Source: a virus (taxonomy: Duplodnaviria > Heunggongvirae > Uroviricota > Caudoviricetes). Taken from it: 37,769 bases of DNA. The position numbers were made by a program, and so were the translations under genes. Where the stretch lies: IMG/VR virus record IMGVR_UViG_3300045988_180316; one strand, given 5' to 3'. Positions 224 through 37,346 of this stretch are shown here, piece by piece. How positions within the stretch are numbered: the stretch's first letter is position 1; each line of letters starts with the position of its first letter. The notes beneath the pieces were generated by a model that saw only the letters and a list, made by a program, of their open reading frames with translations, was not told the DNA's origin and ran no database searches.

Positions 224-299
224 CGCGGTGTGGAGCAGTTGGTAGCTCGCCAGGCTCATAACCTGGAGGTCGCATGTTCGAGTCCTGCCGCCGCAACCA
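224..299 (+). tRNA. tRNA-Met (anticodon CAT), initiator-like
   Basis: 76 nt from CGCGGTG to CAACCA with encoded CCA. Anticodon loop CTCATAA has CAT at 257-259. T-loop GTTCGAGTC. The acceptor stem has a C1:A72 mismatch, as in E. coli tRNA-fMet, to which the whole sequence is closely similar. Confidence 0.85.
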
Positions 300-415: not shown

Positions 416-1579
416 ATGACTGCAAAAGAAATTGATTTTTTGAGCTCGCGTGAAATAGTAGGTTTCACGCTGCCTGTGTTGCATACCAAGGGCGGTTACT
501 GGTATGTTGACTTTACTGCCTTTGACCCTGTCTCGGGTCGGATGAAGCGCAAGAAGTACATGCTTAATAGGTACAAGACAGACCACAAGAAGCGTATGAT
601 GGGTACCTTGCTTATCCACAATATCACGGCAAAATTGACCGCTGGCTGGAATCCTTGGGTGAATGCCGACAAGTCGAGACAATTCACTGAAATACCAATT
701 ATCTTTAGTCGTTATCGTGATTATATTAAGTCGATGACCGACAAAAAGTCGATGAAGGAAAAGACCTCTATCGACTACCTCAGCCGCCTCAAGACTCTGG
801 AGTCTTTTATCTCTGAGTGCAAGAGTGTCAAATATGCCTATCAGATTGACCGTGCCTTTGCCATCGACTTCTTAGACCACCTGATGTATGACCGTGATGT
901 GAGTGCTACCACAAGAAACAACTATCGCTCTTGGCTTGTGTCCTTCGGCACTTGGCTTATGGATAGAAAATATATCAGCGAGAACCCTGCCATCGACATC
1001 AGAAACATCGCTCAGAAGGAGAAGTTCAGAGACCCTTTGACCGAGGGCGCACTTAAGAAGCTGAAGACTTATCTCTATGATAACAACAGACATTTTCTCT
1101 TGGCTTGCCTCTTTGAATATTATACCTTTATCCGACCGAATGAGTTGACGCAGATAAGAATCAAAGATGTGTCGATTGCTGACCAGACGGTCTTTATCAG
1201 TTCTGCCATCAGCAAGAACCGTAAGGACGGACTTGTGGCATTGAACGATGAAATCTTGAAGCTCATGATAGAGCTGAAGATATTTGAGCATCCGGGACAT
1301 TGTTTTATCTTTGGCAAGGGTTTGAAGCCCGGAGAGGAAAGAGCACCTTATAATCAGCTGAGAGTGGAGTGGGGTAAGATGAGAGATGCGATTGGGTTTC
1401 CGAAGGAGTATCAGTTTTATAGCCTGAAGGACACTGGCATCAGGGATTTGGCGAACGCACAGGGTATCGTGGTCGCCAAGGATCAGGCACGCCACTCTGA
1501 TATATCTGTGACGAATCGATATATCAAGAACCAGATGAAAGTGAACGAGGAGACCAAGCACTTCAAAGGTGGGCTTTAG
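416..1579 (+). CDS. Tyrosine recombinase / phage integrase
   Basis: 387 aa. C-terminal catalytic region contains the conserved Arg (FIRPNELTQIRIKDV), the His/Arg box (QARHSDISV) and the Tyr nucleophile (TNRYI). Sits next to the tRNA 3' end. Confidence 0.9.
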   Translation: MTAKEIDFLSSREIVGFTLPVLHTKGGYWYVDFTAFDPVSGRMKRKKYMLNRYKTDHKKRMMGTLLIHNITAKLTAGWNPWVNADKSRQFTEIPIIFSRYRDYIKSMTDKKSMKEKTSIDYLSRLKTLESFISECKSVKYAYQIDRAFAIDFLDHLMYDRDVSATTRNNYRSWLVSFGTWLMDRKYISENPAIDIRNIAQKEKFRDPLTEGALKKLKTYLYDNNRHFLLACLFEYYTFIRPNELTQIRIKDVSIADQTVFISSAISKNRKDGLVALNDEILKLMIELKIFEHPGHCFIFGKGLKPGEERAPYNQLRVEWGKMRDAIGFPKEYQFYSLKDTGIRDLANAQGIVVAKDQARHSDISVTNRYIKNQMKVNEETKHFKGGL

Positions 1580-3568: not shown

Positions 3569-6500
3569 TTATTTGTTTGACTTCATTTTTTGATATTGGC
3601 TCCATTGGCGGTCGAAGCCATCGGGGCCGGTGATGACCACGTATGACTTGATGCCAGCGTTGAGCTGCTCGTTGAGTCTGTCGATGGTGGTATGCACGCT
3701 ATCGAGGGATGCGCCCATCTGCTCGGTGTCGCCACCTGATACGTTGACCACTGGGGCGACCACGGCTGCGCTGCCTGTGCCCATGGCACGGCTCACGTCT
3801 TGGGCGGTGAGCGAGGCGACCGTGTTGTTGCGCTGCGCCATATCGATGAGCTGCAGGGCAGGGAGGAGCTGAGGATTGTTGACGGCGTTGTGGTTGGCGA
3901 CGAACTCGCCAGCGTGAACCACGCCAGCCTCTTTCTTGTAATTGCCAGGACCAGTGAAACCACCCTCGTAATAGCCAGCCGCCTCTGCCTGGTGCTGCTT
4001 TTTGATTGTTGCTATCTGGAGCATGCCCGCTGCGGTGGCGAGACCTGCGGCGATAGGACCAAGGATGTGACCCACCACTGGGATGGCTGCGGCTGATGAG
4101 TAGGCGTTGATGGCAGCCATGGCGGTTGAAGCTATGGCTTGTGCGATCTCTATCTTCATCGCCTTTTTGTTGGCCTTGCTCTTGGCTGCAGCCACCTCTT
4201 TGTCTCGCTTCGCCTCGAGACGCTTTTTCTTGGCTGAGTTGTTGCCAGCGGCAGAAATCTGCTTATCGTAGTTTTTCTCGATCTTGGCGACCTCTAGGTC
4301 TGAGCATGCCTGGGAGTAGGCGGAGGCAGCGCCCATCATCGTGTTGATGCTGCTGAAGGCAGCGCCAGCGATGGAGGCTATCTCTTGATAGGTCTCTTTG
4401 TTCATCTGCTTTTTGGCATCCTGGTATTGCTGCTCGCTGATTTTATCCTCGTCTCGAAGCTTCTGAAGGTTTTGGTTGACCATCTTTTGCTGTTGGATGG
4501 CTGCGATGGCACCACCTGCGATTGTGGCGAGGTTGTCGCTGCCCATGGCATTACTGTTGTCGCCATTGCCCTTGGTCATCTTTTTGGCGGTGTCGAGGGC
4601 GGTGTTGGCATCCTCTTTGCGCTGCTCATCGGCGGTAGGCTTGTATGAGGCGTATTTGTTGGCGATGCCCATCTTTGTGCGCTGGTATTCCTCCTCTCTG
4701 ATGAGACCTGCCTTGTAGATGGCTTCGAGCCCCTGCAGCTCTAGTTGCATCTGCTCTTCGTTGCCGAGCTTGCCGTATTCTTGGCGCAGCTGAAGGAGTT
4801 GTTCGTCGTGTTGCTTCTGAAGGTCGTATTTGCGTTGCTGTTGGGTCAGCTCTCGCTCTTTCTCGATCTGGGCGTACTCGTCAGATGAGGAGAGGTAGAG
4901 GGCTTGTTTTTTGTTGAGATAGTCCTGGTATGAGAGAAAGAGAGCCTCGTTGACGGCATCCTCATTGTGATAGAGGTTGGAGTCTTTGTTGTAGTAATCG
5001 GCATTGAGCTTCATTTCTTTTTTCTGTCGCTCGGTCTCCAGGGCTTCGAGGTCGGCGGTCTGCTTTTTCTCGTAGTCGGCAGCGATGTTTTCTTTCTCTG
5101 CATTGAGTCGCTTGTACTCTTCGCTCTCAGCCTCGCCATACTTTTTGAGAATGTCGAGGCGATCCTGAAGCCCCTGCTCTTTGATATTCTTCATCTTCTC
5201 GTTGTATTCGGCGAGTCGAATCTGACCTGTAGCGTAGAGGGTCTTGGCATCGAGCTCTTCGGCTTGGTTGGCTTTCTTAGCATCGTCTAGCTCTTTTTTC
5301 ATGTCGGCCTTGCGCTTTGCCTCTGCCTTGCGAGCGGCAGCCTCACGTTTCTTTTTCTCCTTTTCGGCAGCTTTGCGCTCTTTCTCGGTCATGGTATGGC
5401 CAGAGGAAGGGGTGGTGTGTGTCTCTGTAGTTGCGCTATTGTTTAGTAAATTCTTCTTTACAGTCTTGTTGTACTGTTTCTGCAAATTTACGTTTTTCTC
5501 TAATTGCTGATTATAGAAATTCTCTTCAGCATTGACTTGCTTTTGCAGGCTTAGGTTTGCCTGTAGTCTTTGCGTATGAACTTGCTTTTGCTTCTCGTTA
5601 CTCTTCAGTGCCTCGTTTTGTTCGATGAGCTGACCTGTCCATCCATCAGCCACGGCATTGCTCTCATATTGCTTAGGATGAGCCTTGCGCTCAGCATCGA
5701 CAGCCTTCAGCGAATATCGTATGCGGCTTTCTTTTTGTTTGAGTTCCAGTTTCTTTTTATTGATTTCCACCTTGCGCTCATAGATGGCTTCTGCCATGGC
5801 AGCATTTTCTAGCTCCTTGATGTAGTTTTGGATGGCAATCTGGTTGTCGTTATACAACTTGCCCTCTTTGGAGATAGAGGCGTGATATTCTGGGACGAGC
5901 TTTATCATATTTGCGATAGCTTGCTTTCGCTCGTCAACGGTATAGGCATTGGAGTGGATAACCTTGTTGAGCATATCGACCTTGTTGCGCTCATCGAGGG
6001 TAGCATCAGACACCTTTTTGGCGAGGCTGGCTTGAGCCTCTGCCACTGCTCTGTTGTTTTTAGCCTCTTGCGTGTTGTTGCGCATCGCCTCGTTGTAAGA
6101 TGTTATGGCTTTGTATGCCCCATAGGCAGCCACGCCCACCACGGTGATGACTGTGGCGAGGGCAGCCCATGGATTGGTGAGACTTGCTAGGCGTGCTGCC
6201 CTCATCACCACGATGTAGCCCTGTATGCCTTTTGTGAGATAAGCCCATGTGGCTTGCAGTGCCACTAAGGCAGCACGCAAGAGTGTAGATGTAGCGGTAT
6301 AAGCTTTATCGACAGCTGAAGCGTATTGTACGGCGGCTGTTTTAATCTTAATGGCGATGGTCTCCTTGTACCAGAGAGCAGTACAAACAGCGATGGCTGT
6401 TGACAGCACGGCTATTTGTTTTGCATAGGTGACGGTGAAGGTGATGAGCGTGGACATGACCTTTATGGTCAGACTGAATGATGTGATGCCATATTTCATG

Positions 6501-7915
6501 GCAGGGATGAGTTTTTCTCCGAGTTCGATGGTGAGGTCTTGGAATCGCTTCTTGGCTTTGTCTAGTTCTGCCTGTACCGTTGTATTCTGGGTATTGAACT
6601 CATTGATGACACTGGTACCGTCGGCATACGACTTGGTGGCGATGTCTTGCGCCTCTTTCACTTGGTCGAGGTGTGTAGCCACGGCGGAGAGAACGCCCAC
6701 GGCACGGGTGCCGTTAAGCTGCATCTCCTCAAACATCGGTGCCATCTCGGCGAAACCACCCTTTGACTTCATGGCTTGCATGAACTTCATCAAGCCCTCG
6801 TTGGCGTTGGTCTTCATCAGGTTGGAGAACTCCTTGACCTGCATGCCCGCTATCTTGGCGAACTTGGCTGGCTCTTGGTACATCTTGGTGATGAGCTGTG
6901 AGAAGACGGTGGCGGAAGTCGCCTCCTCTTGCATATTTTGGTCGAGGGCAGAGGCGAGACCCATGAGCTGTGCCTGGGTCATGCCGGCCTGGATGCCGAC
7001 ACCTGAGAGGTCGGCAGTGAAATCGACGATGTAGCCAGCGTTGGCTGATGAGCTTTGTGCCAGCTCATTGACGGCGGAACCTGTGGCGAGCATCGCACCA
7101 CGAAGGCCTTTGGTCTTATCCTCACCAAACATCTGGGCGAGCTTGCCGATTTTATCGACCGCCCCCTTGCCGAGGTCATCGCCGAGGGCGACATTGATTT
7201 TGTCGGCACCATCAACGAACTCCTCGATCATCTCTTTGCTGGTGATGCCGAGGCGACCGGCAGAGCCAGCCAGCTCGTTGAGCTGCTCACGAGCCGTGCG
7301 GGTATCCATGCGCTTGAAGTCCTCGTTCATCTGATGAACTTGCTCATCGGTCTGACCTGTATATTTGCGCACGTCAGCCATCGACTCCTCCATGTCGGCG
7401 TAGGCTTGAGCTGCAGCTCTCAAAGTAAGAGTGAGTGTGGTGAGACTGCCCAGTATCTGGGTGAAGGCACCCCAGTTTTTGTTAAGACCATCCCACATTC
7501 TAGAGAACAAACTTCTGGAAGCTTTACCTTCGTCGTTGATGTGCTGCATCTCTGCTCGCACTTGCTTTAATTGCTTTTGCAGTTTTTTCCATTCGTCTGA
7601 GTTGCGCTTGATGGCACCGCTTTTCAACTCTCTGTTGAGAGCCTTGGCGACTAGTTGCAGCTCCTTGTATGATGCAGAAGAAAGATTGTTGAGAACTTGG
7701 TTAACCTTCTCTTGGCTAGTCATGTATGCTTTTGTCTCAGCCTTTAATCTCTTTATCTGTCGTTCGAGGGCTGTTGTTGACTCGCCCTTTGCATAAGCCT
7801 CGTCTCTGGCTTTTTGCACTTCTTTCAGCTTGTTTTGCAATTCGTTGAGTTTATCCTTAGCCTCTTTGGTGTCAAGAATAACTCTGCTAACATGGGTATC
7901 TGTATTTGTTGCCAT
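3569..7915 (-). CDS. Tail tape-measure protein
   Basis: 1448 aa. Long coiled-coil, Lys/Glu/Gln-rich repeats; a central hydrophobic segment (residues ~480-600) likely transmembrane; N-terminal core region of the kind seen in TP901-type tape-measure proteins (AGSAGRLGITSKEMIEEFVDGADKINVALGDD). Confidence 0.85.
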   Translation of the reverse strand: MATNTDTHVSRVILDTKEAKDKLNELQNKLKEVQKARDEAYAKGESTTALERQIKRLKAETKAYMTSQEKVNQVLNNLSSASYKELQLVAKALNRELKSGAIKRNSDEWKKLQKQLKQVRAEMQHINDEGKASRSLFSRMWDGLNKNWGAFTQILGSLTTLTLTLRAAAQAYADMEESMADVRKYTGQTDEQVHQMNEDFKRMDTRTAREQLNELAGSAGRLGITSKEMIEEFVDGADKINVALGDDLGKGAVDKIGKLAQMFGEDKTKGLRGAMLATGSAVNELAQSSSANAGYIVDFTADLSGVGIQAGMTQAQLMGLASALDQNMQEEATSATVFSQLITKMYQEPAKFAKIAGMQVKEFSNLMKTNANEGLMKFMQAMKSKGGFAEMAPMFEEMQLNGTRAVGVLSAVATHLDQVKEAQDIATKSYADGTSVINEFNTQNTTVQAELDKAKKRFQDLTIELGEKLIPAMKYGITSFSLTIKVMSTLITFTVTYAKQIAVLSTAIAVCTALWYKETIAIKIKTAAVQYASAVDKAYTATSTLLRAALVALQATWAYLTKGIQGYIVVMRAARLASLTNPWAALATVITVVGVAAYGAYKAITSYNEAMRNNTQEAKNNRAVAEAQASLAKKVSDATLDERNKVDMLNKVIHSNAYTVDERKQAIANMIKLVPEYHASISKEGKLYNDNQIAIQNYIKELENAAMAEAIYERKVEINKKKLELKQKESRIRYSLKAVDAERKAHPKQYESNAVADGWTGQLIEQNEALKSNEKQKQVHTQRLQANLSLQKQVNAEENFYNQQLEKNVNLQKQYNKTVKKNLLNNSATTETHTTPSSGHTMTEKERKAAEKEKKKREAAARKAEAKRKADMKKELDDAKKANQAEELDAKTLYATGQIRLAEYNEKMKNIKEQGLQDRLDILKKYGEAESEEYKRLNAEKENIAADYEKKQTADLEALETERQKKEMKLNADYYNKDSNLYHNEDAVNEALFLSYQDYLNKKQALYLSSSDEYAQIEKERELTQQQRKYDLQKQHDEQLLQLRQEYGKLGNEEQMQLELQGLEAIYKAGLIREEEYQRTKMGIANKYASYKPTADEQRKEDANTALDTAKKMTKGNGDNSNAMGSDNLATIAGGAIAAIQQQKMVNQNLQKLRDEDKISEQQYQDAKKQMNKETYQEIASIAGAAFSSINTMMGAASAYSQACSDLEVAKIEKNYDKQISAAGNNSAKKKRLEAKRDKEVAAAKSKANKKAMKIEIAQAIASTAMAAINAYSSAAAIPVVGHILGPIAAGLATAAGMLQIATIKKQHQAEAAGYYEGGFTGPGNYKKEAGVVHAGEFVANHNAVNNPQLLPALQLIDMAQRNNTVASLTAQDVSRAMGTGSAAVVAPVVNVSGGDTEQMGASLDSVHTTIDRLNEQLNAGIKSYVVITGPDGFDRQWSQYQKMKSNK

Positions 7916-7937: not shown

Positions 7938-7945
7938 CAAAGGTA
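7938..7945 (-). promoter_or_regulatory. -7 promoter element TACCTTTG (minus sense) upstream of the tape-measure gene
   Basis: Plus-strand caaaggta, 22 nt from the tape-measure ATG. Same motif family as at 10440, 20298, 25661, 26924, 27444, 28377 and 37310. Confidence 0.35.
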
Positions 7946-7960
7946 ATAAGGAGGAAAATA

Positions 7961-7999
7961 TAATAAAAATACGAGACCGTATGTATTGCGGTCTCGTAT
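7961..7999 (-). terminator. Rho-independent terminator (minus strand) after gene 8000-8341
   Basis: Perfect 11-bp stem (7969-7979 with 7989-7999), 9-nt loop, followed in minus sense by ATTTTTATT. Confidence 0.5.
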
Positions 8000-9103: not shown

Positions 9104-9715
9104 TTATTTCACCACCTCTATGTATCTCGAGTAATCAATCTTGGAGTGGGGATTGTGGCTGACTATCTGCACCTGATAGCCCTTGGTGCCCCATCGCCAC
9201 CAGAGGAACTTGTGGCGGTAGGTGCGGCTCACGATGGTCGTCAGGCTGTCTCGAGACGAGTACTGGCACTCTCGCTTGGGGATGTCGATATGGAGGGAGA
9301 GCCATTGGTCTCGGTAGGTGTAGATGGAATCGGGGATGCCGGAACCAGCCACGGCGGCGGTCGGTTCGGGCGTGAGATAGACCGTATCGGCGGTGGTTGA
9401 CGAAGCTGTGTGGATAGACTGCACATCTTTGAGCCGCACTTTGAGGTCTTTGATGAGCTTGGTATCGGCGAGGTGGAGCTTTTGCAGCTCGTCGTATTTC
9501 GCCTGAAGGGCGTTGAATATGGCGACATTGAGAGTGTCTCTCACGTTGGCATATTCAATGTCGTAGTTGAGGTTGGCTACGTTGTAGCTCTGTCGGTCGA
9601 GGTCAGCCTGAAGCTGCTCGCACTTGTTGGCGGAGTGGATGAATGCGACGGCGGTCACGATGAGCAGGGCTGCCAGGAGCTGGATGATAATCTTGGGTGT
9701 GATTTTTTTTATCAT
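9104..9715 (-). CDS. Spanin-like lysis-associated membrane protein (putative)
   Basis: N-terminal transmembrane helix (IIIQLLAALLIVTAVAF) followed by a coiled-coil segment, directly after the endolysin gene. Called by architecture and position only. Confidence 0.35.
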   Translation of the reverse strand: MIKKITPKIIIQLLAALLIVTAVAFIHSANKCEQLQADLDRQSYNVANLNYDIEYANVRDTLNVAIFNALQAKYDELQKLHLADTKLIKDLKVRLKDVQSIHTASSTTADTVYLTPEPTAAVAGSGIPDSIYTYRDQWLSLHIDIPKRECQYSSRDSLTTIVSRTYRHKFLWWRWGTKGYQVQIVSHNPHSKIDYSRYIEVVK

Positions 9716-9745
9716 TGTCTTTTTATGGAATATTTGGTGAGTGAG

Positions 9746-10171
9746 TTATGCGATGTCTTTGTATTCGTCGATGGCATTGAAGCAAGGACACATCTTCTTC
9801 CATTTGGACTTGTCCTTGCCCCAGATGTCACGATGGCCCATTATCTGGGCATCAGGGAACTGAGCCTTCAGTTTGTGGAGAAGCAAAACGAGGGCGTCTT
9901 TTTGCTCTGGTGTGCGGTTGTCGATAGCCTTGCCCTTAGCATCGATGCCACCGATATAGGCGACGTTGATGGCTGTGGAGTTGTAGCCCTGCACGCCGTT
10001 GCTCACCTTTTCGATGGCTAGGAGTTGGTGGATGCCGCCGTTTGGGGCGATGACGTAGTGATAACCTGGATTGGTCCAGCCCTTGCGGCGGAACTCTGCC
10101 TTGAGGTCGTCGATGGACTGACTTTGTGAACCTGCGGTGCAGTGGACGAAAATGCGTTTAATCTGTCTCAT
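9746..10171 (-). CDS. Endolysin: N-acetylmuramoyl-L-alanine amidase, T7-lysozyme / PGRP type
   Basis: IFVHCTAG, GYHYVI and GHRDI...CPCF correspond to the zinc-binding His/His/Cys motifs of T7 lysozyme. Start moved to MRQIKR (10171); the longer ORF-track N-terminus is Ser/Pro-rich and overlaps the holin gene. Confidence 0.8.
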   Translation of the reverse strand: MRQIKRIFVHCTAGSQSQSIDDLKAEFRRKGWTNPGYHYVIAPNGGIHQLLAIEKVSNGVQGYNSTAINVAYIGGIDAKGKAIDNRTPEQKDALVLLLHKLKAQFPDAQIMGHRDIWGKDKSKWKKMCPCFNAIDEYKDIA

Positions 10172-10412
10172 TATTTTGCTTGTTATGATTGAACAATTTG
10201 TTTTTGATGTTGTCGAACTTGGCATCGATGGCGATGGCGACACCGAAGATGGATCCGGCATACATGAGCGACTGGGCGAAGTACCAGAGCACATTGTCGG
10301 TGACATCACGTGCCTGGGACGTGAAGTAACTGATGTAAACCAGTATGATGGCGAGGAGGAGCACGGCGATGGCTGAGCCGTATTGTATCCATTCTTTAGT
10401 ATTTCTCTGCAT
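10158..10412 (-). CDS. Holin (putative)
   Basis: ~84 aa with two hydrophobic helices (YGSAIAVLLLAIILVYISYF and LMYAGSIFGVAIAI), overlapping the endolysin start by 14 nt. Start taken at MQRNTKEW (10412); TATCTTTG motif at 10440-10447. Confidence 0.5.
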   Translation of the reverse strand: MQRNTKEWIQYGSAIAVLLLAIILVYISYFTSQARDVTDNVLWYFAQSLMYAGSIFGVAIAIDAKFDNIKNKLFNHNKQNNETD

Positions 10413-10460
10413 GGTGAATCTTGTTTTTGTTTTACAGTGCAAAGATAAGAAGGGTAGGGT

Positions 10461-10498
10461 GATAATAAAAATACGAGACCGCCCTAACGATCTCGTAT
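10461..10498 (-). terminator. Rho-independent terminator (minus strand) after gene 10513-10920
   Basis: 8-bp stem atacgaga (10471-10478) with tctcgtat (10491-10498), followed in minus sense by ATTTTTATTATC. Same ataaaaatacgag module as at 7961. Confidence 0.45.
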
Positions 10499-10926: not shown

Positions 10927-12570
10927 TCACGTGAATTTATAGAACTTCTTTTTGAACTTATTGTGAAGCTCTGCGACCACGGTGGAGAAGGGTAGCTCGT
11001 CACGACAGAAGTCGTTGAGGGCTTGGTCTATCAAGATCTTGGAGCCTGTATAGAGGTAGTGCTCCTGAGGCTGCCATACCTCGGTGCCGTCTGGCTCCAG
11101 GTGGTCGATGATGCGATAGCGAAGGGAGAGGCGCTTCTTGGGTACCTCTTTGGTGACCATGTGGGTGGAGCCGTCCGGGGCGGTCTCCTCTTGCTGGATG
11201 GTCTCCTTCTCTATCACCGAGTCATCGACCTTGTAGTCTATCACTTGGACGAGGAACTTGTTCTCGTCCTGACCCTCACGGCAGATGATGTCCTCGATGG
11301 ACTGCTGCTGTGATTTCTCCATACCGTCAAAAGGCACGCGCGCACGGCGAGCCTTGACGAGTTTACCGAATCTTTCCATACCGATTTTCTTATATAAGTG
11401 TTTTGAGTTTGCGTGGATGCCCAGTCCTAGGCGAGAGGCTGCCTTGATCTGTATCTGACGGTCTGTGAAGCCCGCCTTGCGTAAGTTGGCAATCTGTTTG
11501 CAGAGGTCGTGCTTGAACCGCTTGCGCAGCAGGGCGTGGTCAGCGTAGATGATCTGACCGCAGAAGTCGATGCCATCGCAGGTGCGGTGGATACCCCAAG
11601 ACTTATTGATGGATAGGTGCCAGTCACGGGCGAGGTGCATCACGGCAAGCTCTGCCATCAGCCTGAGGAACACCTTATCCTCGTGGAGGATGTAGATGTT
11701 GTCCATGAAGCGGTAATAATGGCGAAGACCTTGGCGGCAGAAGCGCTCGAACCTATCGTTGAGCGACTTCACCCCCCCACATAGCAGCTGAGCTTGCTGC
11801 TGAGTGCGACAGGTAACGAGCATGTCGCTCACGTAGCGAGCCTGCCAGTAACGGAACTTGTCGGTGTCTTGGAGAATGTCGAAGCATCGGAGTGCCAGGT
11901 AATCGAAGCGGGCGAGGAAGAGCTGACCCAAGAGTTGGGCGAGCTTGACGCCGAGCACGATGCCTGGATTGAAGCTATCGACCACCTCGTCGATGAAGGC
12001 GAGGAGCTTGCGGTCTTTGATCTTGCGGCGATATTCACTTTTGAGAAGAGCGTGGTCTATGCTCTGAAAATAATGGTGAATATCCATGGGCAAGCAGTAG
12101 AAGGTATCTTGCTGTGGCGAGTTGAAGATGTCTCGCTTGACAAGATTATAGAAATAATGGGTGCCCTTGCCCTTGGAACCAGCCGGACTGTGGCTGTAGA
12201 GTGTCTTGCGAAGGTTATCCTCTACAGGTTGCAGGGCAGCGTGCTGGATGACGTGGTCGATAACGGGCAGCTTGTTGACTTGGCGATGTTTTGGATAGTC
12301 GATATCTTTGGCGACATAGGCTGAGGTATGCCAAGTTTGTTGGGTGTAAGCATCGAGCATGCGTCCGATGTTATGGTCTAGGTTTGCCTCGAATTTTTGG
12401 ACCGCACGGCGAGACATCTTTTGTCGGGCGTAGTCATAGAATGCCCGACGAAAGTTGTCTAGTGTCTCGACCTGTGGCGATATGTTGCCAAACCTTTTCA
12501 TAAGCGGTGTAATGTCTGTGTTGAACGGTGTATAAACTGTGTATAGTCTGAATCGTCTGCTTTTGTACAC
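10927..12570 (-). CDS. DGR-type reverse transcriptase with non-canonical catalytic motif
   Basis: RT motifs in the translation: SPAGSKGKGTHY (compare bRT RPDKGTH), FYCLPMDIHHYFQSIDHALL (motif 3), GIVLGVKLAQLLGQLF (motif 4, the DGR-typical G-x-x-x-S/A-Q) and RFMDN-IYILHEDKVF where Y-x-D-D is expected. Start may be 12570 or 12501. Lies downstream of the template repeat. Confidence 0.8.
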   Translation of the reverse strand: MYKSRRFRLYTVYTPFNTDITPLMKRFGNISPQVETLDNFRRAFYDYARQKMSRRAVQKFEANLDHNIGRMLDAYTQQTWHTSAYVAKDIDYPKHRQVNKLPVIDHVIQHAALQPVEDNLRKTLYSHSPAGSKGKGTHYFYNLVKRDIFNSPQQDTFYCLPMDIHHYFQSIDHALLKSEYRRKIKDRKLLAFIDEVVDSFNPGIVLGVKLAQLLGQLFLARFDYLALRCFDILQDTDKFRYWQARYVSDMLVTCRTQQQAQLLCGGVKSLNDRFERFCRQGLRHYYRFMDNIYILHEDKVFLRLMAELAVMHLARDWHLSINKSWGIHRTCDGIDFCGQIIYADHALLRKRFKHDLCKQIANLRKAGFTDRQIQIKAASRLGLGIHANSKHLYKKIGMERFGKLVKARRARVPFDGMEKSQQQSIEDIICREGQDENKFLVQVIDYKVDDSVIEKETIQQEETAPDGSTHMVTKEVPKKRLSLRYRIIDHLEPDGTEVWQPQEHYLYTGSKILIDQALNDFCRDELPFSTVVAELHNKFKKKFYKFT

Positions 12571-12709
12571 TTGATAACCTTCGACCGGATGACCGTGTTG
12601 TCATCATCTACCAGCTGTCTTATTGATGTGTATGTATCGCCATGGGGCGAGGATTGACCCTGTAATCTCGAAGTGGGAGCAAACGACCCACGAAGAGATA
12701 TGTCTGTAA

Positions 12710-20297: not shown

Positions 20298-20305
20298 CAA
20301 AGATA
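20298..20305 (-). promoter_or_regulatory. -7 promoter element TATCTTTG (minus sense) for the tail-fibre operon
   Basis: Plus-strand caaagata, 16 nt upstream of the ATG at 20281, preceded in minus sense by GTATTTTTAT. Confidence 0.4.
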
Positions 20306-20333
20306 GGTATGATGAGAACTATATAAAAATACG

Positions 20334-24575: not shown

Positions 24576-25637
24576 TTAGTTGAACGTATCGTCGAAGGAG
24601 TCGTCGAAGATGCGACCGCCTGTGTTGCCGATGTTCTTGAACACGACATTCTGGACTCGCTGGGCATATTGGTAGCTGAAGGTGAACTCAGCCATGTCGT
24701 CCAGCTCGTTGGTGCGCTCGCTCTTGGAGTCGGTAAAGGTTATCTCTTTGTCCTGGGTGTAGTCACGGAACAGATAGATCTCATCGGAGCGCAGCAGGTC
24801 TTCGGCGAAGTGTGCCATGGACGGTGGGATAACGCCTGTGTCGCCCTCGAAGGTGCGGGTCTCTTTGACGGAGTAGTTGATCTTTTTGCCGCTGATGACG
24901 GCGCTCTTGCGCTCGAAGGTAGGTGCGATTTTCTTTTTGCCCAGGCAATAGAAGATCTCTTGGCACCCGAAGGAGTTGGTGAAGAGGAGCACCGGGTCGG
25001 CGACCGCCTCGGTATGGTCTATCTGGAAGTCTTGCACTCGCTTGCCCACGGTGACGGTGTAGGCGAAGAGGTCGCCACGGTCGGCATCGTAGTAACGGTC
25101 GGGCGAGACATCGAAGGTGGTGATGTTATTCACCGTATGGGTAGGGGTGGCATCGGCGGCGATATTGCCCTCCACGACCTTGCCGTCTTTGTAATATCGG
25201 GCTGTGACGGCGGCAGTGGTGCTGTCGGCACCTGCGGCATGGAGATATTCACGATGGCCGAGCTGTGTGAGCTTGGCACCATCGAGGAGGGTGAGGAAGT
25301 ATTGGTCGAGGAACGCCTGGCACGACATGTTGATGTCAACGGTGGCGTAGTAGGCGGTGAACTCGCACGACCAGTTGGCGACATCGCTCTCGCCATTGTG
25401 CTCGACAATCTTGATGGCGCACTTGGCGACCACGGTCGTGCGCACGGCATCGGAGATGAGCGTGCCGAGGTCGTAGATGGTGATGGTGCCAGCCACTGGG
25501 TAGTAAGTCTCGCTGAGCAGCTCTTCGCCCTCGCAGGTGATGGTAACGGTAGCGCGCTCGCCACCTATCTTGAAGGAGAAGGAGTCGAGCGCACTGGTGA
25601 ACAATGGCGAAGATGGTTGGTTGGTAACTGTAATCAT
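24576..25637 (-). CDS. Hypothetical phage structural protein, first gene after a terminator/promoter module
   Basis: 353 aa. The overlapping plus-strand ORF 24669-25793 looks like an antisense artefact. TATCTTTG promoter 20 nt upstream. Confidence 0.45.
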   Translation of the reverse strand: MITVTNQPSSPLFTSALDSFSFKIGGERATVTITCEGEELLSETYYPVAGTITIYDLGTLISDAVRTTVVAKCAIKIVEHNGESDVANWSCEFTAYYATVDINMSCQAFLDQYFLTLLDGAKLTQLGHREYLHAAGADSTTAAVTARYYKDGKVVEGNIAADATPTHTVNNITTFDVSPDRYYDADRGDLFAYTVTVGKRVQDFQIDHTEAVADPVLLFTNSFGCQEIFYCLGKKKIAPTFERKSAVISGKKINYSVKETRTFEGDTGVIPPSMAHFAEDLLRSDEIYLFRDYTQDKEITFTDSKSERTNELDDMAEFTFSYQYAQRVQNVVFKNIGNTGGRIFDDSFDDTFN

Positions 25638-25660
25638 ATCAATGTCTCATTAAAACGATG

Positions 25661-25668
25661 CAAAGATA
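25661..25668 (-). promoter_or_regulatory. -7 promoter element TATCTTTG (minus sense)
   Basis: Plus-strand caaagata 25661-25668, downstream of the terminator at 25682-25721 and about 24 nt upstream of the ATG at 25637. Confidence 0.4.
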
Positions 25669-25681
25669 GGAAGGAAGGGGA

Positions 25682-25721
25682 GAAAATAAAAATACCTGAT
25701 TGTCATCACGACAACCAGGTA
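25682..25721 (-). terminator. Rho-independent terminator (minus strand) after the three-gene small-protein operon
   Basis: 11-bp stem with one mismatch (25693-25703 with 25711-25721), 7-nt loop, followed in minus sense by TTTTTATTTTC. Confidence 0.45.
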
Positions 25722-25810
25722 TCGACTCATGGAGCTGACCACGCCTTGTTAAGCCTAAGGCTCCATTCCGAGACTGTTTTATGTTGTAAATGAAAAAAAA
25801 TGTATTTGCA

Positions 25811-26134
25811 TCATAATGGACTGCGCACGCCGTATTCCAGCTCCCAGACGAGACGACCACCACTTGGGCAAATCAGCTTGTAGCCATGTGCGACCATGTA
25901 TTCTGTAATGGTGGAGACGGAGGCTGTCACGATGTCTTTGATGTCGTCTTGTATCTCTTTTGATGTCATGACCTCTATCGGACCATCGCGCTCATCGGTT
26001 GGCGGGCGGTAGCCTTGGAAATAGGCATCGAGCGCCATATTGACGTAATCGACCTTAGTCTCTGGCTCTGGTGGTACAGCCGGGATGTCGGCTGTCACGT
26101 TGAAGCCCATGATGCGTTTGCGATTGTTGCTCAT
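25811..26134 (-). CDS. Hypothetical small protein, third gene of the small operon
   Basis: 107 aa; start overlaps the stop of the upstream gene (ATGA). Confidence 0.45.
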   Translation of the reverse strand: MSNNRKRIMGFNVTADIPAVPPEPETKVDYVNMALDAYFQGYRPPTDERDGPIEVMTSKEIQDDIKDIVTASVSTITEYMVAHGYKLICPSGGRLVWELEYGVRSPL

Positions 26135-26400
26135 GCCTCACCTCCTTTCGCCTCCAGGGCAATGTTGATGGTCTTGAAGAGCTTGCTCATGTGGTCGAAG
26201 TTATTGAGCATGAGCAGCACCCTGTCGGCACCGCCGAGGTCTTCGACGCAGTTGGTCACCACCTCGTCGGAGATGAGTACCTTTTTGACTTGCTCAAGGT
26301 ACTCGATGAAGTAGTTGAGCTGGTTGACATCCATCATATCTACGAGCGCATTCCAGACCTCTGCTGTCATGTGTATGTTTGTTGCGTTGTTTGTGTTCAT
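26131..26400 (-). CDS. Hypothetical small protein, second gene of the small operon
   Basis: 89 aa; overlaps both neighbours by 4 nt. Confidence 0.45.
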   Translation of the reverse strand: MNTNNATNIHMTAEVWNALVDMMDVNQLNYFIEYLEQVKKVLISDEVVTNCVEDLGGADRVLLMLNNFDHMSKLFKTINIALEAKGGEA

Positions 26401-26660
26401 GCTGCAATTCCTCCCATCAGATAACCACCAGCAATCATCACTACCGCGAAGCAGGCTATGCCCACCATGGTCAATGCCACCTCGCCATAAGTAACCGTCT
26501 CTTCGCAGAGGTAGCTGAAGGTCTCGCTCCTGGTAGCCATGAGGCGCTTAGCCTCACGCTTGATTGCACACTTGAGGGATTTCATTCCCTCGTTCACATT
26601 CACGTGGATGCCGGCAGGCTTAGCCTGCATCGCATCATTTAATAAAATAGAATTCTGCAT
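26397..26660 (-). CDS. Small tail-anchored membrane protein, first gene of the small operon
   Basis: 87 aa with C-terminal hydrophobic helix (VALTMVGIACFAVVMIAGGYLMGGIAA). Its ATG is 4 nt downstream of the third copy of a repeated 16-nt leader element. Confidence 0.45.
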   Translation of the reverse strand: MQNSILLNDAMQAKPAGIHVNVNEGMKSLKCAIKREAKRLMATRSETFSYLCEETVTYGEVALTMVGIACFAVVMIAGGYLMGGIAA

Positions 26661-26664
26661 ATTG

Positions 26665-26931
26665 CATCATCTGTTAAGCATTAGCAGCCAACTTGATTTC
26701 GTGAGAAAAGGGTGGCGGCTGCATTCCCCGTTGCTTAACAGATGATGACTTATCCGAGAGGACTAATCAAAAATCTACGGTTCATGCAGCCGCCATATTG
26801 GTACACCTTTTTCCCGTTGCCGGGAAAATGATACTCTTGGGCATAAAAAAAGCCTGCGGCTGAGAAGCCATAGGCGAAACGGTCGCCCTGCCGGATAGAT
26901 TACTATCATCTGTTAAGCGTTGGCAAAGGTA
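26665..26931 (-). promoter_or_regulatory. Structured leader / operator region with three copies of a 14-16 nt element, plus promoter
   Basis: catcatctgttaagca at 26665-26680, its exact reverse complement at 26732-26747, and a direct copy atcatctgttaagcg at 26905-26919. A second inverted pair ggcggctgcat (26714-26724) / atgcagccgcc (26784-94) interleaves with the first. -7 motif TACCTTTG at 26924-26931 with a TTTG 20 nt upstream. Confidence 0.5.
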
Positions 26932-26948
26932 AGAAGAAAATCCGGAAC

Positions 26949-26985
26949 CGCCAAAAAAAAAGCGAGAAATTTTCATTCCTCGCTC
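26949..26985 (-). terminator. Rho-independent terminator (minus strand) after the secreted-protein gene
   Basis: Minus sense reads gagcgag-gaatgaaaattt-ctcgct followed by nine T. Confidence 0.45.
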
Positions 26986-27017
26986 AATTTTATTTTCAAA
27001 ACATGTTTAATAACATA

Positions 27018-27416
27018 TTATTGCTCATCTTTGGTAATTAACCCTGCTCGAATCTCATCATCGTTCTTCACTCTCTTCACCAGAACATAGTGGAGAACAG
27101 CCCTGCCGGCACCCTCTGTTATATAATATGTCTTGTCAAGTTTCCAACCTTTCTTAGCCATATAATTCACGGCTGCCATGACGGTATTGAACTTGATCTG
27201 TTTGCCATCCTCACCATATAAGCTCTCGAAAGAACCTCCACCATTGGAGACTGCACCCATATCAAGCATGACCTTCACTTTGCCGACGCCCCAAAAGTTA
27301 TATGCCTTGAGGTCGCAATAAACCGGATACTTACCATCCTCAGACTGGATGGTGCTCTGCGCTCTAGCGCCAATAGCCATAAAAATGATGGCCATCATAA
27401 CTAAAAACCTTTTCAT
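27018..27416 (-). CDS. Secreted hypothetical protein (signal peptide)
   Basis: 132 aa. N-terminus MKRFLVMMAIIFMAIGARAQ is a typical signal peptide. Lower GC than the phage core. Own promoter motif TATTTTTG at 27444-27451. Confidence 0.55.
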   Translation of the reverse strand: MKRFLVMMAIIFMAIGARAQSTIQSEDGKYPVYCDLKAYNFWGVGKVKVMLDMGAVSNGGGSFESLYGEDGKQIKFNTVMAAVNYMAKKGWKLDKTYYITEGAGRAVLHYVLVKRVKNDDEIRAGLITKDEQ

Positions 27417-27542
27417 TTTTTAATGTTTAAATTTAAATCGATACAAAAATAACAATAAAATATTAGTTATTCTAACCATTTTATCTGTATTTATATAAAA
27501 TCTGCTGGAAATATGTTGTAGAGCATAAAAACGAGGGACTTT

Positions 27543-27581
27543 GGGAAGAAAAAAGCCCCGATGCATCACGCACCGGGGCTT
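27543..27581 (-). terminator. Rho-independent terminator (minus strand) after hicB
   Basis: 8-bp stem aagccccg (27553-27560) with cggggctt (27574-27581), followed in minus sense by TTTTTTCTTCCC. Confidence 0.45.
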
Positions 27582-27647
27582 CTAAAGCGATCTTTTAATT
27601 TTTAATTGCATGAAGTACAATCGGCATGAAGCCGATCGAACTGTTCT

Positions 27648-28073
27648 TTAAACATACTGTAGAACTGGTCTATCTATCAAGAGTCCAGTATCTATATCTC
27701 CTTTAACTTTTGCTATACCTTGTCTAATTTTCTCCAAGCTTTTGCCTTGTGGTACCTTGATGCCTGCTGCATATTGTCGAAGCAACGAGGCGTTCATGCC
27801 GATATACTTGGCGAAGGCTGAGATACTTAGAGGATAGTAGTTGAAAAATGCCCCAACATCGAAGACGAAGTGAAACTCCAAGTCTGGGTACTCCTTACCT
27901 TCCTCCTCATAGAATTCTCTCATTTCCTTATCTGCAATGAGGAAATCTTCCATAGCAGCCTTTGCGGTCTTGCCGTCACCAATAAGGCCAAACGTCAAGT
28001 CATCAGTCCCAGTCATGAAGCAAGAATATAAATCCTTGCCAGACTCCACTACAACAGTAACTTTTCTTGCCAT
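27648..28073 (-). CDS. hicB: HicB-family antitoxin with C-terminal HTH domain
   Basis: 141 aa. N-terminal ~90 aa has the HicB-like pattern (KVTVVVESGKDLYSCF...GDGKTAKAAMEDF). C-terminal segment YPLSISAFAKYIGMNASLLRQYAAGIKVP is HTH-like. Downstream of hicA. Confidence 0.6.
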   Translation of the reverse strand: MARKVTVVVESGKDLYSCFMTGTDDLTFGLIGDGKTAKAAMEDFLIADKEMREFYEEEGKEYPDLEFHFVFDVGAFFNYYPLSISAFAKYIGMNASLLRQYAAGIKVPQGKSLEKIRQGIAKVKGDIDTGLLIDRPVLQYV

Positions 28074-28149
28074 ATCTTTCTATATATAAAGTTCATAATC
28101 AAAAGTGTCCTTCTTGCATACCAAGAAAATCATGGAAGAAGAACCTGGG

Positions 28150-28332
28150 CTAAAGCCCAAGTTCTTGATAGATAGATTTCAGAGTGCGAATATTCACCTC
28201 TTCAGTTCCATGCCGAGGAACGGCAGTGCTCTTCCCATTGGCTGGGTTGAACCAAATGTCGTGTCGGCCTCCATGACGAAGTAGAAAGCATCCCGCTTTC
28301 TTTAACTTCCGATACAGTTCACTGTATTTCAT
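28150..28332 (-). CDS. hicA: HicA-family toxin (mRNA interferase)
   Basis: 60 aa from MKYSELYRKLKKAGCFLLRHGGRHDIWFNPANGKSTAVPRHGTEEV..., the HicA pattern. Start moved from the ORF-track 28407 to 28332 because a TACCTTTG -7 motif lies at 28377-28384 inside the longer ORF. Confidence 0.65.
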   Translation of the reverse strand: MKYSELYRKLKKAGCFLLRHGGRHDIWFNPANGKSTAVPRHGTEEVNIRTLKSIYQELGL

Positions 28333-28376
28333 AATCTCAGTATGTTTAAAGAACACTTTGTCCTTATTGGACGATG

Positions 28377-28384
28377 CAAAGGTA
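28377..28384 (-). promoter_or_regulatory. -7 promoter element TACCTTTG (minus sense) for hicAB
   Basis: Plus-strand gatgcaaaggta; 45 nt upstream of the hicA ATG at 28332. Confidence 0.4.
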
Positions 28385-28520
28385 ACAATAAAGTTATAAA
28401 TAACCAAATATTTCGGTAACTATTTTGTTATATTACCTAAGATTTAACATTTATACATAAAGATAAGCGATGTCCCTACCTCTTTTAGGCTCTTGCCAGA
28501 CCGCTTTCGCCGCTAGGCGA

Positions 28521-28560
28521 AAAATTTTCAGAAAAATAGGGAAGGTCGAAAAACCTTCCC
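28521..28560 (-). terminator. Rho-independent terminator (minus strand) after radC
   Basis: Perfect 8-bp stem gggaaggt (28539-28546) with accttccc (28553-28560), loop cgaaaa, followed in minus sense by TATTTTTCTGAAAATTTTT. Confidence 0.5.
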
Positions 28561-28576
28561 TTGTACCTATTATATA

Positions 28577-29263
28577 TTATAGCTTTCCCTTGTCGTGGTA
28601 GCTGTAGAAGCCATCCTCGGCTAAGATGATGTGGTCCATCAAGAAGAGTCTCATCACCTCGCACGCCTTGGCTATCTTCTGCGTGAGCATATCGTCCGCC
28701 TTGCTCGGCTGCGTGCTGTTCGATGGGTGGTTGTGCGCCACGGCGATGATGGTTGCGTTGTTGAGCACGGCTTCTTTCATTATCAGCCTTATGTCCACCG
28801 CTGTGTCGGTGATGCCTCCCTCGCTGAGCTTCACACTCTTTATCAGTCTGAAGTTTTGGTTCATCAGCACTACCCAAAAGCCCTCTGTCTCATTGCTTCC
28901 CATCATCGGGCGAAGATAGTTGTAGAGTGCTAGGCTGCTGCCTAGGTCGGTATTACGTGCCACCTTTTCCATTTGGTAGCGTCTGCCTAGCTCGATGGCT
29001 GCCTGTAGGGCTATCGCCTTGCAGTCGCCGATGCCTGGTACCACCTCTAGGTCTTCGATTCTCGCCTTGCCGATATTGCGAAGTGAGTTGTCCATGATGT
29101 TATAAATCTGTCGTGCCTGCTCTTGGCTGTCCTTGGTACCTGCCCCTCTGTTGATTACCAAAGAAATCAAGTCAACGTTGGTTAGGGTGTCGAAGCCTTG
29201 GTTATAGGCTCTGTACTGCGGTCTCTCCTCCATACAAAGGTCGTTATAATTTTGTCGTATCAT
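28577..29263 (-). CDS. radC: RadC-like JAB-domain protein
   Basis: 228 aa with the JAB/MPN metal-binding motif HNHPSNSTQPSKAD and the helix-hairpin-helix-like N-terminus typical of RadC (UPF0758). Confidence 0.75.
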   Translation of the reverse strand: MIRQNYNDLCMEERPQYRAYNQGFDTLTNVDLISLVINRGAGTKDSQEQARQIYNIMDNSLRNIGKARIEDLEVVPGIGDCKAIALQAAIELGRRYQMEKVARNTDLGSSLALYNYLRPMMGSNETEGFWVVLMNQNFRLIKSVKLSEGGITDTAVDIRLIMKEAVLNNATIIAVAHNHPSNSTQPSKADDMLTQKIAKACEVMRLFLMDHIILAEDGFYSYHDKGKL

Positions 29264-29279
29264 AGCTATATTGTTTTAA

Positions 29280-29804
29280 TTAGTTATACATTCTCTTGGT
29301 TCTCGCTAGGAACATCGCTCCCATCACTTGTGCGCCACATTCTGCTAGCTCGTTGGCGAACTCTCGGGCGGTCGCACCGCTTGTCACCACATCGTCGAAG
29401 ATGATGACTTTCTTTCCGTTGAAATACTCTCTATCGAGTGCCACTCTGTAGTCGAAGCTCTCGCACACTCTGTCGGCGCTGAAGTGCTTTGCCGTGCGCT
29501 CGCCATAGATGGAAATGTGCTCGCTTCCGTTCTGTACCTTTGCGCCTTGGCTCACCTTTTGGGCGAAGCGAGAAAAGCGCTTGTTGTACTTCTTGGAGTT
29601 GGCTGCTGGTGCGCATACCATCACGAAGTCGCTGGCTTTGTCGCCATAGGTGTTGACGAAAGAGCTGACCACCATATCGGCTGCGGCGTCTGTCGCCCAC
29701 TGCTTGCCATCCTTGAAAGCAAAGATGAAGTTTCTCACTTGCTCGGCTTGCGCTGAGCGGTCGAAACGCTTGGAGTTGTACTCGTAATAATTGAAAGTTT
29801 TCAT
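29280..29804 (-). CDS. ComF-like phosphoribosyltransferase-domain protein, no N-terminal zinc finger
   Basis: 174 aa with the PRPP-binding motif VIIFDDVVTSGATA. Start is 16 nt upstream of radC, so probably co-transcribed. Family called from motif only. Confidence 0.55.
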   Translation of the reverse strand: MKTFNYYEYNSKRFDRSAQAEQVRNFIFAFKDGKQWATDAAADMVVSSFVNTYGDKASDFVMVCAPAANSKKYNKRFSRFAQKVSQGAKVQNGSEHISIYGERTAKHFSADRVCESFDYRVALDREYFNGKKVIIFDDVVTSGATAREFANELAECGAQVMGAMFLARTKRMYN

Positions 29805-37286: not shown

Positions 37287-37319
37287 ATATCTTTGCGATT
37301 TTTACGGCGCAAAGATATA
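37286..37319. promoter_or_regulatory. Palindromic promoter region in front of the protease gene
   Basis: Perfect 12-bp inverted repeat tatatctttgcg (37286-37297) / cgcaaagatata (37308-37319) with a 10-nt spacer. Each arm carries a TATCTTTG -7 motif, one per strand; the minus-sense one is 23 nt upstream of the ATG. Confidence 0.4.
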
Positions 37320-37346
37320 TAATAATGTATAAGGATAAAAAAACTT

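Follow-up and report, generated by a model that had tools for sequence, protein, structure and literature searches.

What do three short, overlapping genes do when they are set, under a promoter and a structured leader of their own, among the late and accessory genes of a prophage? The question is raised by IMG/VR virus record IMGVR_UViG_3300045988_180316, a 37,769-nucleotide (nt) stretch of tailed-phage DNA (Caudoviricetes), hereafter the window, which is a temperate, siphovirus-like prophage of Segatella (Prevotella) copri. Here, an original prediction made from the letters alone had pointed to three minus-strand open reading frames (ORFs) of 87, 89 and 107 amino acids (aa) joined by ATGA start/stop overlaps; the coordinates and both junctions (26400-26397 between ORF1 and ORF2, 26134-26131 between ORF2 and ORF3) were confirmed in the sequence. 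Superinfection exclusion, a toxin/antitoxin-like module and an accessory system expressed in the lysogen were named in that prediction as candidate roles. Our comparisons with related phages indicate that the cassette belongs to a widespread modular family, of which it is a minimal and recombinant form, and three hypervariable, covarying boxes in its leader strongly suggest an antisense gate of the type known from the coliphages P4 and P1.

The operon and its leader

The trio had been proposed to be an autonomous cassette, its genes tightly coupled and served by a promoter, a structured leader and a terminator that belong to it alone. Regular-expression scans, a terminator scan, a shuffle test of the leader and the ATGA overlaps all bear this out. 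The unit is made of the following parts:

26924-26955, minus strand: cassette promoter TTTG-N20-TACCTTTG, with the -33 TTTG at 26955-26952, a 20-nt spacer and the -7 element TACCTTTG at 26931-26924 (regular-expression scans)
26397-26660, minus strand: ORF1 (family c0), 87 aa (ORF scan and sequence)
26131-26400, minus strand: ORF2 (family c6), 89 aa (ORF scan and sequence)
25811-26134, minus strand: ORF3 (family c3), 107 aa (ORF scan and sequence)
25682-25723, minus strand: intrinsic terminator of the operon, a hairpin at 25723-25691 followed by a T-run (terminator scan)

The promoter perfectly matches what we take to be the Bacteroides -33/-7 consensus, and for all ORF1 homologues examined (65 unique leaders, 92 loci) such a promoter lies 290-350 nt before the gene. 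The minus strand of the window has three full-consensus promoters, all of them before accessory genes (hicA, the cassette and a 146-aa gene). At the other end of the operon, the terminator stem covaries over 42 unique loci while its loop is mostly conserved. The leader itself, ~260 nt long, is structured (z-score = -4.2, better than 200 of 200 shuffles).

Three covarying boxes in the leader RNA

We aligned the 65 unique leaders of the 92 loci. Across this alignment the leader is largely invariant, save for one indel-rich insert and three short boxes, which we call A, B and C:

26905-26918, minus strand: box A, GCTTAACAGATGAT, at or next to the predicted 5' end of the transcript (exact match search)
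26845-26875, minus strand: terminator-like hairpin (26875-26852) with a U7 tract (26851-26845), between boxes A and B (terminator scan)
26809-26840, minus strand: variable insert, here the hairpin TTTTCCCGGCAACGGGAAAA (alignment columns ~122-232)
26706-26795, minus strand: B-domain, ~90 nt, with a closing stem of 12 base pairs (bp; 26795-26784/26724-26713), an inner CCGU/ACGG stem and a small hairpin, then CCC-UUUU
26733-26746, minus strand: box B, AUCAUCUGUUAAGC (RNA), the reverse complement of boxes A and C
26666-26679, minus strand: box C, GCTTAACAGATGAT, separated by 5 nt (GCAAT) from the ORF1 AUG at 26660

The 14-mer of the boxes occurs exactly three times in the window, where 0.33 occurrences would be expected. 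Despite the existence of 29 box types, boxes A and C are identical to each other and to the exact reverse complement of box B in 51 of the 65 leaders. Both possible pairings, A:B and B:C, are preserved to the same extent: each has 98.1% of its cells paired, and 8 of the 14 pairs have changed on both sides. Doubly changed cells number 126-127 (127 for B:C), as against at most 10 (at most 8 for B:C) when the partner is slid by 1-3 columns, and none of 500 shuffles reached the covariation score of the two pairings. The B:C duplex is also predicted to be selective, with an average energy of -24.4 kcal/mol for cognate and -14.1 kcal/mol for non-cognate boxes, a difference of ~10 kcal/mol.

The B-domain folds with a minimum free energy of -39.7 kcal/mol (z-score = -5.4), which none of 200 shuffles equalled, and an RNAalifold consensus recovers the same stems, with a few compensatory pairs. 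The variable half of box B, GUUAAGCA, is unpaired in an internal loop of this fold. The B-domain is therefore presented here as a candidate stable antisense RNA. Between boxes A and B, the hairpin with its U7 tract is nearly invariant in relatives.

The boxes turn over rapidly. A shared box type was found in 31% of the leader pairs with 97-99% flank identity and in 3% of those below 97%, and on these comparisons the turnover of box type far outpaces the divergence of the flanks. A structure acting purely in cis can hardly explain such a rapid, three-way turnover, which would suit a determinant of specificity that works in trans between related phages.

Could the boxes instead act in DNA, as sites for a recombinase or invertase (A/B inverted, A/C direct) or as operators, the operon being switched by rearrangement or repression? 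The three copies are exactly identical, with almost no G-U intermediates, and 14 related loci have a tyrosine-recombinase-like gene (family c11) within the cassette; both observations would suit such a role. However, the sequence around the variable core shows no dyad symmetry, the three boxes have differing left flanks, and the cassettes of the window and of most loci contain no recombinase. Moreover, 29 variants among near-identical phages would need a co-varying protein, of which none is seen, and an RNA mechanism predicts the positions seen for box B, in a loop of a highly stable RNA fold, and for box C, at a translation start. We consider DNA-level action very improbable; its invertible form was set aside, given the missing dyad symmetry and the lack of a recombinase in most loci.

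Some leaders depart from the three-way match. In L013 (3707-4012) no two of boxes A, B and C share a type (GGTTACA / GTCTACA / GCTTAAC), and in L001, L033 and L063 box A alone differs, the B:C match being kept more often than the three-way match. These mismatched leaders may be recombinant or decaying switches. The insert is the sole indel-rich part of the leader: small hairpins, TTTTCCCGGCAACGGGAAAA or TTTTCCTAACTGGGAAAA, are swapped, duplicated and deleted between nearly invariant flanks. Two further ideas were discarded. Diversification of the boxes by a diversity-generating retroelement was set aside because the variable positions are not adenine-specific and the three sites change together, and two small ORFs in the leader (44 and 64 aa) were set aside as genes because they are broken by indels in relatives.

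Resemblance to phage antisense systems

In the satellite phage P4, processing of the untranslated leader of the PLE operon yields the CI RNA, which pairs with one sequence on either side of it, seqA upstream and seqC downstream (PMC4825925). The arrangement found here is similar in several respects. In P4 the leader stands behind a constitutive promoter and its antisense element (seqB in the CI RNA) is flanked by two targets on the same transcript; the order A-B-C is the same here, box B being complementary to targets both up- and downstream on its own transcript. As in the P4 CI/P1 c4 class, the downstream target falls in the start region of the first ORF, to which the later genes are coupled. 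In contrast, the host here belongs to the Bacteroidota rather than the Proteobacteria, there is no sequence or covariance-model similarity, and the genes are unrelated ORFans instead of the kil-eta-cII-epsilon-alpha genes of P4.

The immI operon of phage P1, c4-icd-ant, encodes Icd, which inhibits cell division, and the antirepressor Ant (PMC8198154). In the systems of P1 and P7 an antisense RNA is encoded upstream on the transcript of its own target, and a first small ORF gates later genes, a layout that the present operon would share. Differences in RNA specificity define P1 and P7 as heteroimmune relatives. The present leaders differ from theirs in having three boxes instead of two paired segments and 29 specificity types instead of two; besides, the proteins are unlike Icd or Ant, and no C1-type operator or repressor is seen nearby.

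A third parallel is found in Gifsy-1, where IsrK controls orf45-anrP within the operon isrK-orf45-anrP-isrJ (PMC4825925). There, a promoter-proximal short RNA ends at an intrinsic terminator, and read-through leads to a small ORF that gates the antirepressor; here, the terminator-like hairpin stands after box A. In Gifsy-1, RNA-RNA pairing remodels the translation start region (PMC4825925). That short RNA activates translation, in contrast to the block considered below, and it has no homology with the leader.

The three proteins

Are the three ORFs genes, and of what kind? ORF1 belongs to a family of >1100 homologue clusters and ORF2 to one of 134. ORF3 gave 6 clusters in a word-indexed search; an exhaustive HMMER search of 1.84 billion proteins with an ORF3 profile returned 35 small relatives (clusters at 50% identity), none of them fused to a known domain, and tblastn found ORF3 relatives of 45-54% identity in most related loci. 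Ratios of nonsynonymous to synonymous substitution rates (dN/dS) against homologues of the same length were 0.23-0.5 for ORF1 and 0.07-0.4 for ORF2, which by sequence comparison places both under purifying selection. Because of these homologue clusters and, for ORF1 and ORF2, of the dN/dS values, the three ORFs are taken to be real genes and not chance ORFs.

ORF1 has a single strongly hydrophobic segment, residues 61-87 (Kyte-Doolittle 2.32), that runs to the C-terminus; the protein is thus tail-anchored, as had been claimed. Its most conserved part is the N-terminal ~60 aa, the cytoplasmic domain, which includes two conserved cysteines. ORF2 is acidic (isoelectric point (pI) 4.5) and was modelled as four predicted helices at low confidence (predicted local distance difference test, pLDDT, 65). 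ORF3, also acidic (pI 4.75), has a disordered N-terminus followed by a predicted winged-helix-like domain at residues ~27-99.

None of the three proteins has a significant match in Pfam, PHROGs, NCBIfam, PADLOC or PDB sequences; PADLOC in particular gave 0 families at E <= 0.1, so a defence role is without support there. A search of PDB sequences with a 42-member ORF3 profile had no match, and a fold search of BFVD with ORF3 returned solely uncharacterised members of its own family. No likeness to virion or lysis proteins was found in the profile (Pfam, PHROGs, NCBIfam, PADLOC), PDB sequence and BFVD/fold searches, in keeping with the prediction that nothing identifies the trio as standard structural or lysis proteins, and ORF1-3 are probably not components of either kind. 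The products are probably a tail-anchored inner-membrane protein, a small acidic helical protein and an acidic protein with a putative winged helix.

A hydrophobic C-terminal helix in ORF1 and an antisense box that covers its translation start region also bring to mind a type I-like toxin/antitoxin system, in which ORF1 would be a toxin that damages membranes and the box-B antisense RNA of the same transcript would prevent its translation; the nearby hicAB genes show that this position tolerates toxin/antitoxin cargo. Type I toxins are typically peptides of fewer than 60 aa, whereas ORF1 has 87 aa and a conserved soluble domain of 60 aa. Moreover, the antisense element shares the strand and the transcript of its target instead of being separately transcribed, and the translationally coupled downstream genes would be left unexplained. 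We therefore give this possibility little credence.

A proposed post-transcriptional gate

It seems to us an even call that ORF1-3 form an accessory or early-lytic operon that is gated, after transcription, by its own leader RNA. Transcription from the host-consensus promoter would yield an RNA with its 5' end at or next to box A. Box B would pair with box C, either in cis or, once released by processing or termination, as a small RNA in trans, and this pairing would block the access of ribosomes to ORF1. ORF2 and ORF3 start inside the preceding stops (AUGA), so the silencing of ORF1 would silence the whole operon. In Bacteroidota, translation initiates on unstructured leaders, with no Shine-Dalgarno sequence, and a block by B:C pairing would for this reason matter particularly there. 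Box A would be either a competitor for box B or, as in P4, a second target, thereby setting the switch, and the 6-8 variable bases would be a specificity label that separates related co-resident or superinfecting phages.

The operon is possibly silent in the lysogen. [quoted passage not shown]

Several points weigh against this gate. The operon sits among late and accessory genes and not beside a recognisable repressor. None of ORF1-3 resembles a known antirepressor; the ORF2 model is of low confidence and its fold search gave generic, uninformative matches, and the acidity of ORF3 is not what is usual in a winged helix that binds DNA. The box helices contain hardly any G-U pairs, which is unusual for RNA and keeps alive a DNA-level reason for the exact repeats. 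Lastly, cmscan of 25600-27100 at E <= 5 found no C4 (presumably RF01695), IsrK or related Rfam family. In the absence of such a match, the resemblance to P4 and P1 is one of design only and not a demonstrable homology. A weak L20_leader match at 26948-27037 is below threshold and coincides with the hairpin of the upstream terminator.

A bolder version of the same gate is possible, if rather doubtful. In this version the B-domain would be a trans-acting antisense RNA, and its 6-8-nt variable loop would sort Segatella copri prophages into dozens of heteroimmunity or orthogonality groups; the lytic-switch or early genes that it silences would be ORF1-3 and, in relatives, the longer cassettes, and the system would have evolved independently of P4 CI and P1 c4, under frequency-dependent selection in the human gut. 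The literature yielded no prior description of RNA immunity in Prevotella or Bacteroidota phages. If the leader is indeed an RNA immunity or orthogonality switch, box type would be a label, readable in the sequence, of prophage exclusion versus coexistence, and the leader would offer a compact, programmable translational gate for Bacteroidota, where Shine-Dalgarno-based tools fail. It would also give a handle on conserved dark-matter proteins, the ORF1 family above all, and would present the P4/P1 design as a case of convergent evolution in a distant phylum.

A modular cassette of recombinant origin

The ORFs that follow the ORF1 homologues in the 92 related Segatella/Prevotella phage loci were clustered into families. 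They form a colinear pool, c0 (ORF1)-c5-[c11+c14]-c1-c13-c2-c7-c6 (ORF2) or c12/c16-c3 (ORF3)-c4 (a 353-aa gene), in which c11 is tyrosine-recombinase-like, c1 a coiled coil and c2 basic. Cassettes comprise 3-8 genes, 4-8 in the relatives, and the window has the minimal form c0-c6-c3. Wherever a locus includes the beginning of the cassette, c0 is its first gene, and in the lineage that carries the 353-aa gene the last place before c4 is always taken by c3. Across relatives the genes are mostly joined by ATGA overlaps (30 seen) or separated by 1-4 nt. From this comparison, the trio is the shortest version of a modular cassette and not a fixed unit. Families c5, c1, c13, c2, c7, c12, c16, c9 and c10 have no significant match in Pfam, PHROGs, NCBIfam or PADLOC.

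In a second phage lineage, of which MT835559.1 and L013-L023 are examples, the leader and c0 recur and are followed by c5-c1-c7-c9-c8-c10; this lineage is without c6, c3 and c4, and its cassette stands after the lysis genes and before small opposite-strand genes. The leader and ORF1 of the window are closest to this second lineage, with 93-96% identity. In contrast, ORF2 (95% identity), ORF3 (84%) and the 353-aa gene (99%) are closest to L003, whose ORF1 is only 59% identical. The split identities thus place a recombination joint at the ORF1/ORF2 junction (26397-26400). L003 has an additional basic 98-aa gene (c2) between ORF1 and ORF2. By these alignments, gene exchange or deletion appears to take place precisely at the ATGA junctions.

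The second lineage also bears on the idea that ORF1-3 are small virion-assembly or connector proteins of the block downstream. Their sizes are typical of connectors, they lie directly upstream of the 353-aa / 86-aa / 512-aa / DUF6712 block, and ORF2 and ORF3 are co-inherited with it. Yet ORF1 and the leader are also present in the second lineage, which lacks that block, after the lysis genes. The consensus promoter, terminator and gating leader of the operon, the membrane nature of ORF1 and the lack of a structural-protein match in PHROGs and BFVD folds speak against this idea as well, and we find it hardly credible.

Variable gene content at a fixed genome position is also what would be expected if the operon were an ordinary moron expressed from the prophage. 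Morons and acr-aca loci have their own promoter and terminator in the late region and encode variable, small and often acidic proteins, the last gene being of the helix-turn-helix type. The cassette resembles them in its independent promoter and terminator, located inside the late-gene region, in its variable small proteins at a fixed locus and in its conserved last gene with a predicted winged helix; it differs from them in being colinear, with a conserved first gene, and in a regulation that is apparently RNA-based. Under this explanation, the operon would be constitutive in the lysogen and confer superinfection exclusion or a host-fitness trait, the leader tuning translation in cis through alternative A:B and B:C folds. 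The full host-consensus promoter and flanking terminators, as in the neighbouring hicAB and lipoprotein genes, agree with this, and small membrane proteins such as HK97 gp15 and T4 Imm are typical exclusion factors. Nevertheless, a switch in cis alone leaves the fast turnover of the boxes, with its 29 types, unexplained; PADLOC gave no match, the conserved part of ORF1 is its N-terminal cytoplasmic domain, and the cassette order is colinear instead of random. Since the three covarying boxes are aimed at the ORF1 start, gated expression is favoured over simple constitutive expression of a moron, which we regard as unlikely.

Some relatives have genes inserted within the cassette. The 368-aa tyrosine-recombinase-like gene c11 (motifs identified by eye) follows c5, ~700-1900 nt after ORF1, in L018, L019, L023, L031, L053, L073, L076-L078, L080 and L083-L085. 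In L068 (5039-6046), the gene inserted behind c5 resembles N6-adenine methyltransferases (c24, motifs by eye). Insertions thus seem to favour the cassette as a hotspot.

Promoter junctions and a possible link to late genes

On both sides of the operon, a terminator leads directly into a promoter:

26960-26985, minus strand: intrinsic terminator of the upstream lipoprotein-like gene (27018-27416), an 11-bp stem and T8 (terminator scan)
25661-25695, minus strand: second-class promoter GTATTTTTAT-N17-TATCTTTG, which overlaps the T-run of the operon terminator and serves the 353-aa gene block (start 25637)

The T-run of the upstream gene leads into the -33 element of the cassette promoter. The downstream junction is of another type: the pattern GTATTTTTAT-N17-TAYCTTTG has four exact copies in the window, with 0 expected, all on the minus strand, at 25661-25695, 20298-20332, 10440-10474 and 7938-7972. 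They precede the 353-aa gene, the 1159-aa gene, the lysis genes and the tape-measure-like gene, respectively, and at three of the four sites the pattern is preceded by an ATAC...GTAT hairpin. A looser copy at ~37310-37330 stands before the head protease block, upstream of the cassette. Promoters of this class have no consensus -33 TTTG, and the junctions possibly represent, on sequence grounds, a phage-specific late promoter class. As terminator-promoter junctions are present at several blocks, insulation is not unique to the cassette, which is distinguished by its full host-consensus promoter and its leader.

Junctions of the GTATTTTTAT type were found in 51 of 56 loci of the first lineage and in 0 of 36 of the second. 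The penultimate gene of the cassette (c6, or c12/c16) and the matching c3 subtype are inherited together, which fits a two-protein complex and could equally be simple linkage, and this pair is confined to the lineage with the GTATTTTTAT-type junctions. A role in late-gene regulation is therefore a live sub-hypothesis: ORF2 and ORF3 would be a lineage-specific activator or antiterminator working on the GTATTTTTAT-N17-TAYCTTTG junctions, and ORF1 with the leader would serve as the gate by which late genes stay silent in immune cells. Consistent with this, the pair always abuts the first junction downstream, ORF3 has a predicted winged-helix fold, and the junction promoters lack the -33 TTTG of the host consensus. 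However, the co-occurrence could be plain linkage, and the looser junction copy precedes the head protease block, which is upstream of the cassette. ORF3 is moreover acidic, and searches of Pfam, PHROGs and PDB sequences showed no similarity of ORF1-3 to known late activators, sigma factors or antiterminators. We judge such a role distinctly unlikely.

Genome context and host

Segatella copri and Prevotella were identified as hosts from the source names of homologues and from a genome scan; the latter, made with a 20-mer, pointed to Segatella/Prevotella hosts, and its few matches in unrelated phyla are presumably due to chance. At the left end of the window, a tRNA-Met gene (224-299, plus strand) adjoins a tyrosine integrase gene (416-1579, plus strand), and this end is likely the attachment site and prophage boundary. 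Nearly all genes of the window are on the minus strand, and nearly all are without annotation. They are arranged as a head protease, a 367-aa gene, an HNH-like gene, a weak TerL match, the accessory genes and the cassette, after which come the 353-aa, 86-aa, 512-aa and DUF6712 block, then the 1159-aa gene, and finally tail-fibre-like genes, the reverse transcriptase of a probable diversity-generating retroelement with its RT-17 RNA, the lysis genes and the tape-measure-like gene.

In an Rfam gathering search of the whole window, only the tRNA and RT-17 were found. The 353-aa and 512-aa neighbours gave nothing in a PDB sequence search, the 353-aa protein had no tblastn match in a phage GenBank collection, and a literature search on DUF6712 returned nothing relevant. 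A single, unannotated record of that collection shares the upstream accessory-gene/leader region.

The accessory island upstream of the cassette (27018-29804, minus strand) encodes a phosphoribosyltransferase-like protein, a RadC/JAB protein, a HicA toxin (28150-28407), a HicB-like protein and a lipoprotein-like protein of 132 aa that by eye looks as if it bore a signal peptide. The HicB-like protein, of 141 aa, was assigned by position and by similarity across relatives and has no family match. The content of the island differs in nearly every related locus (DUF6941, DUF5053, DUF2335 and others).

The lysis cassette had been placed elsewhere in the prophage, and indeed we located it at ~9104-10442 (minus strand), by a DUF6549 homologue, amidase-like motifs and a two-helix membrane protein. 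The DUF6549 homologue, of 203 aa, is 27% identical to an endolysin-adjacent gene of MT835559.1. The amidase-like motifs, recognised by eye in a 187-aa ORF, begin at an internal methionine, so the true start of this ORF is probably at about residue 47. By eye, a 94-aa ORF resembles a two-helix membrane protein or holin. The tape-measure-like gene (3569-7915) has an unusual site, beside the integrase end and downstream of the lysis genes.

An Rfam RT-17 RNA (12553-12654, minus strand, 59.4 bits) lies directly upstream of the 547-aa reverse transcriptase gene (10927-12570), which has a PHROG match at E = 1e-54, and a gene for a 561-aa tail protein is found just upstream. The prophage probably carries a diversity-generating retroelement.

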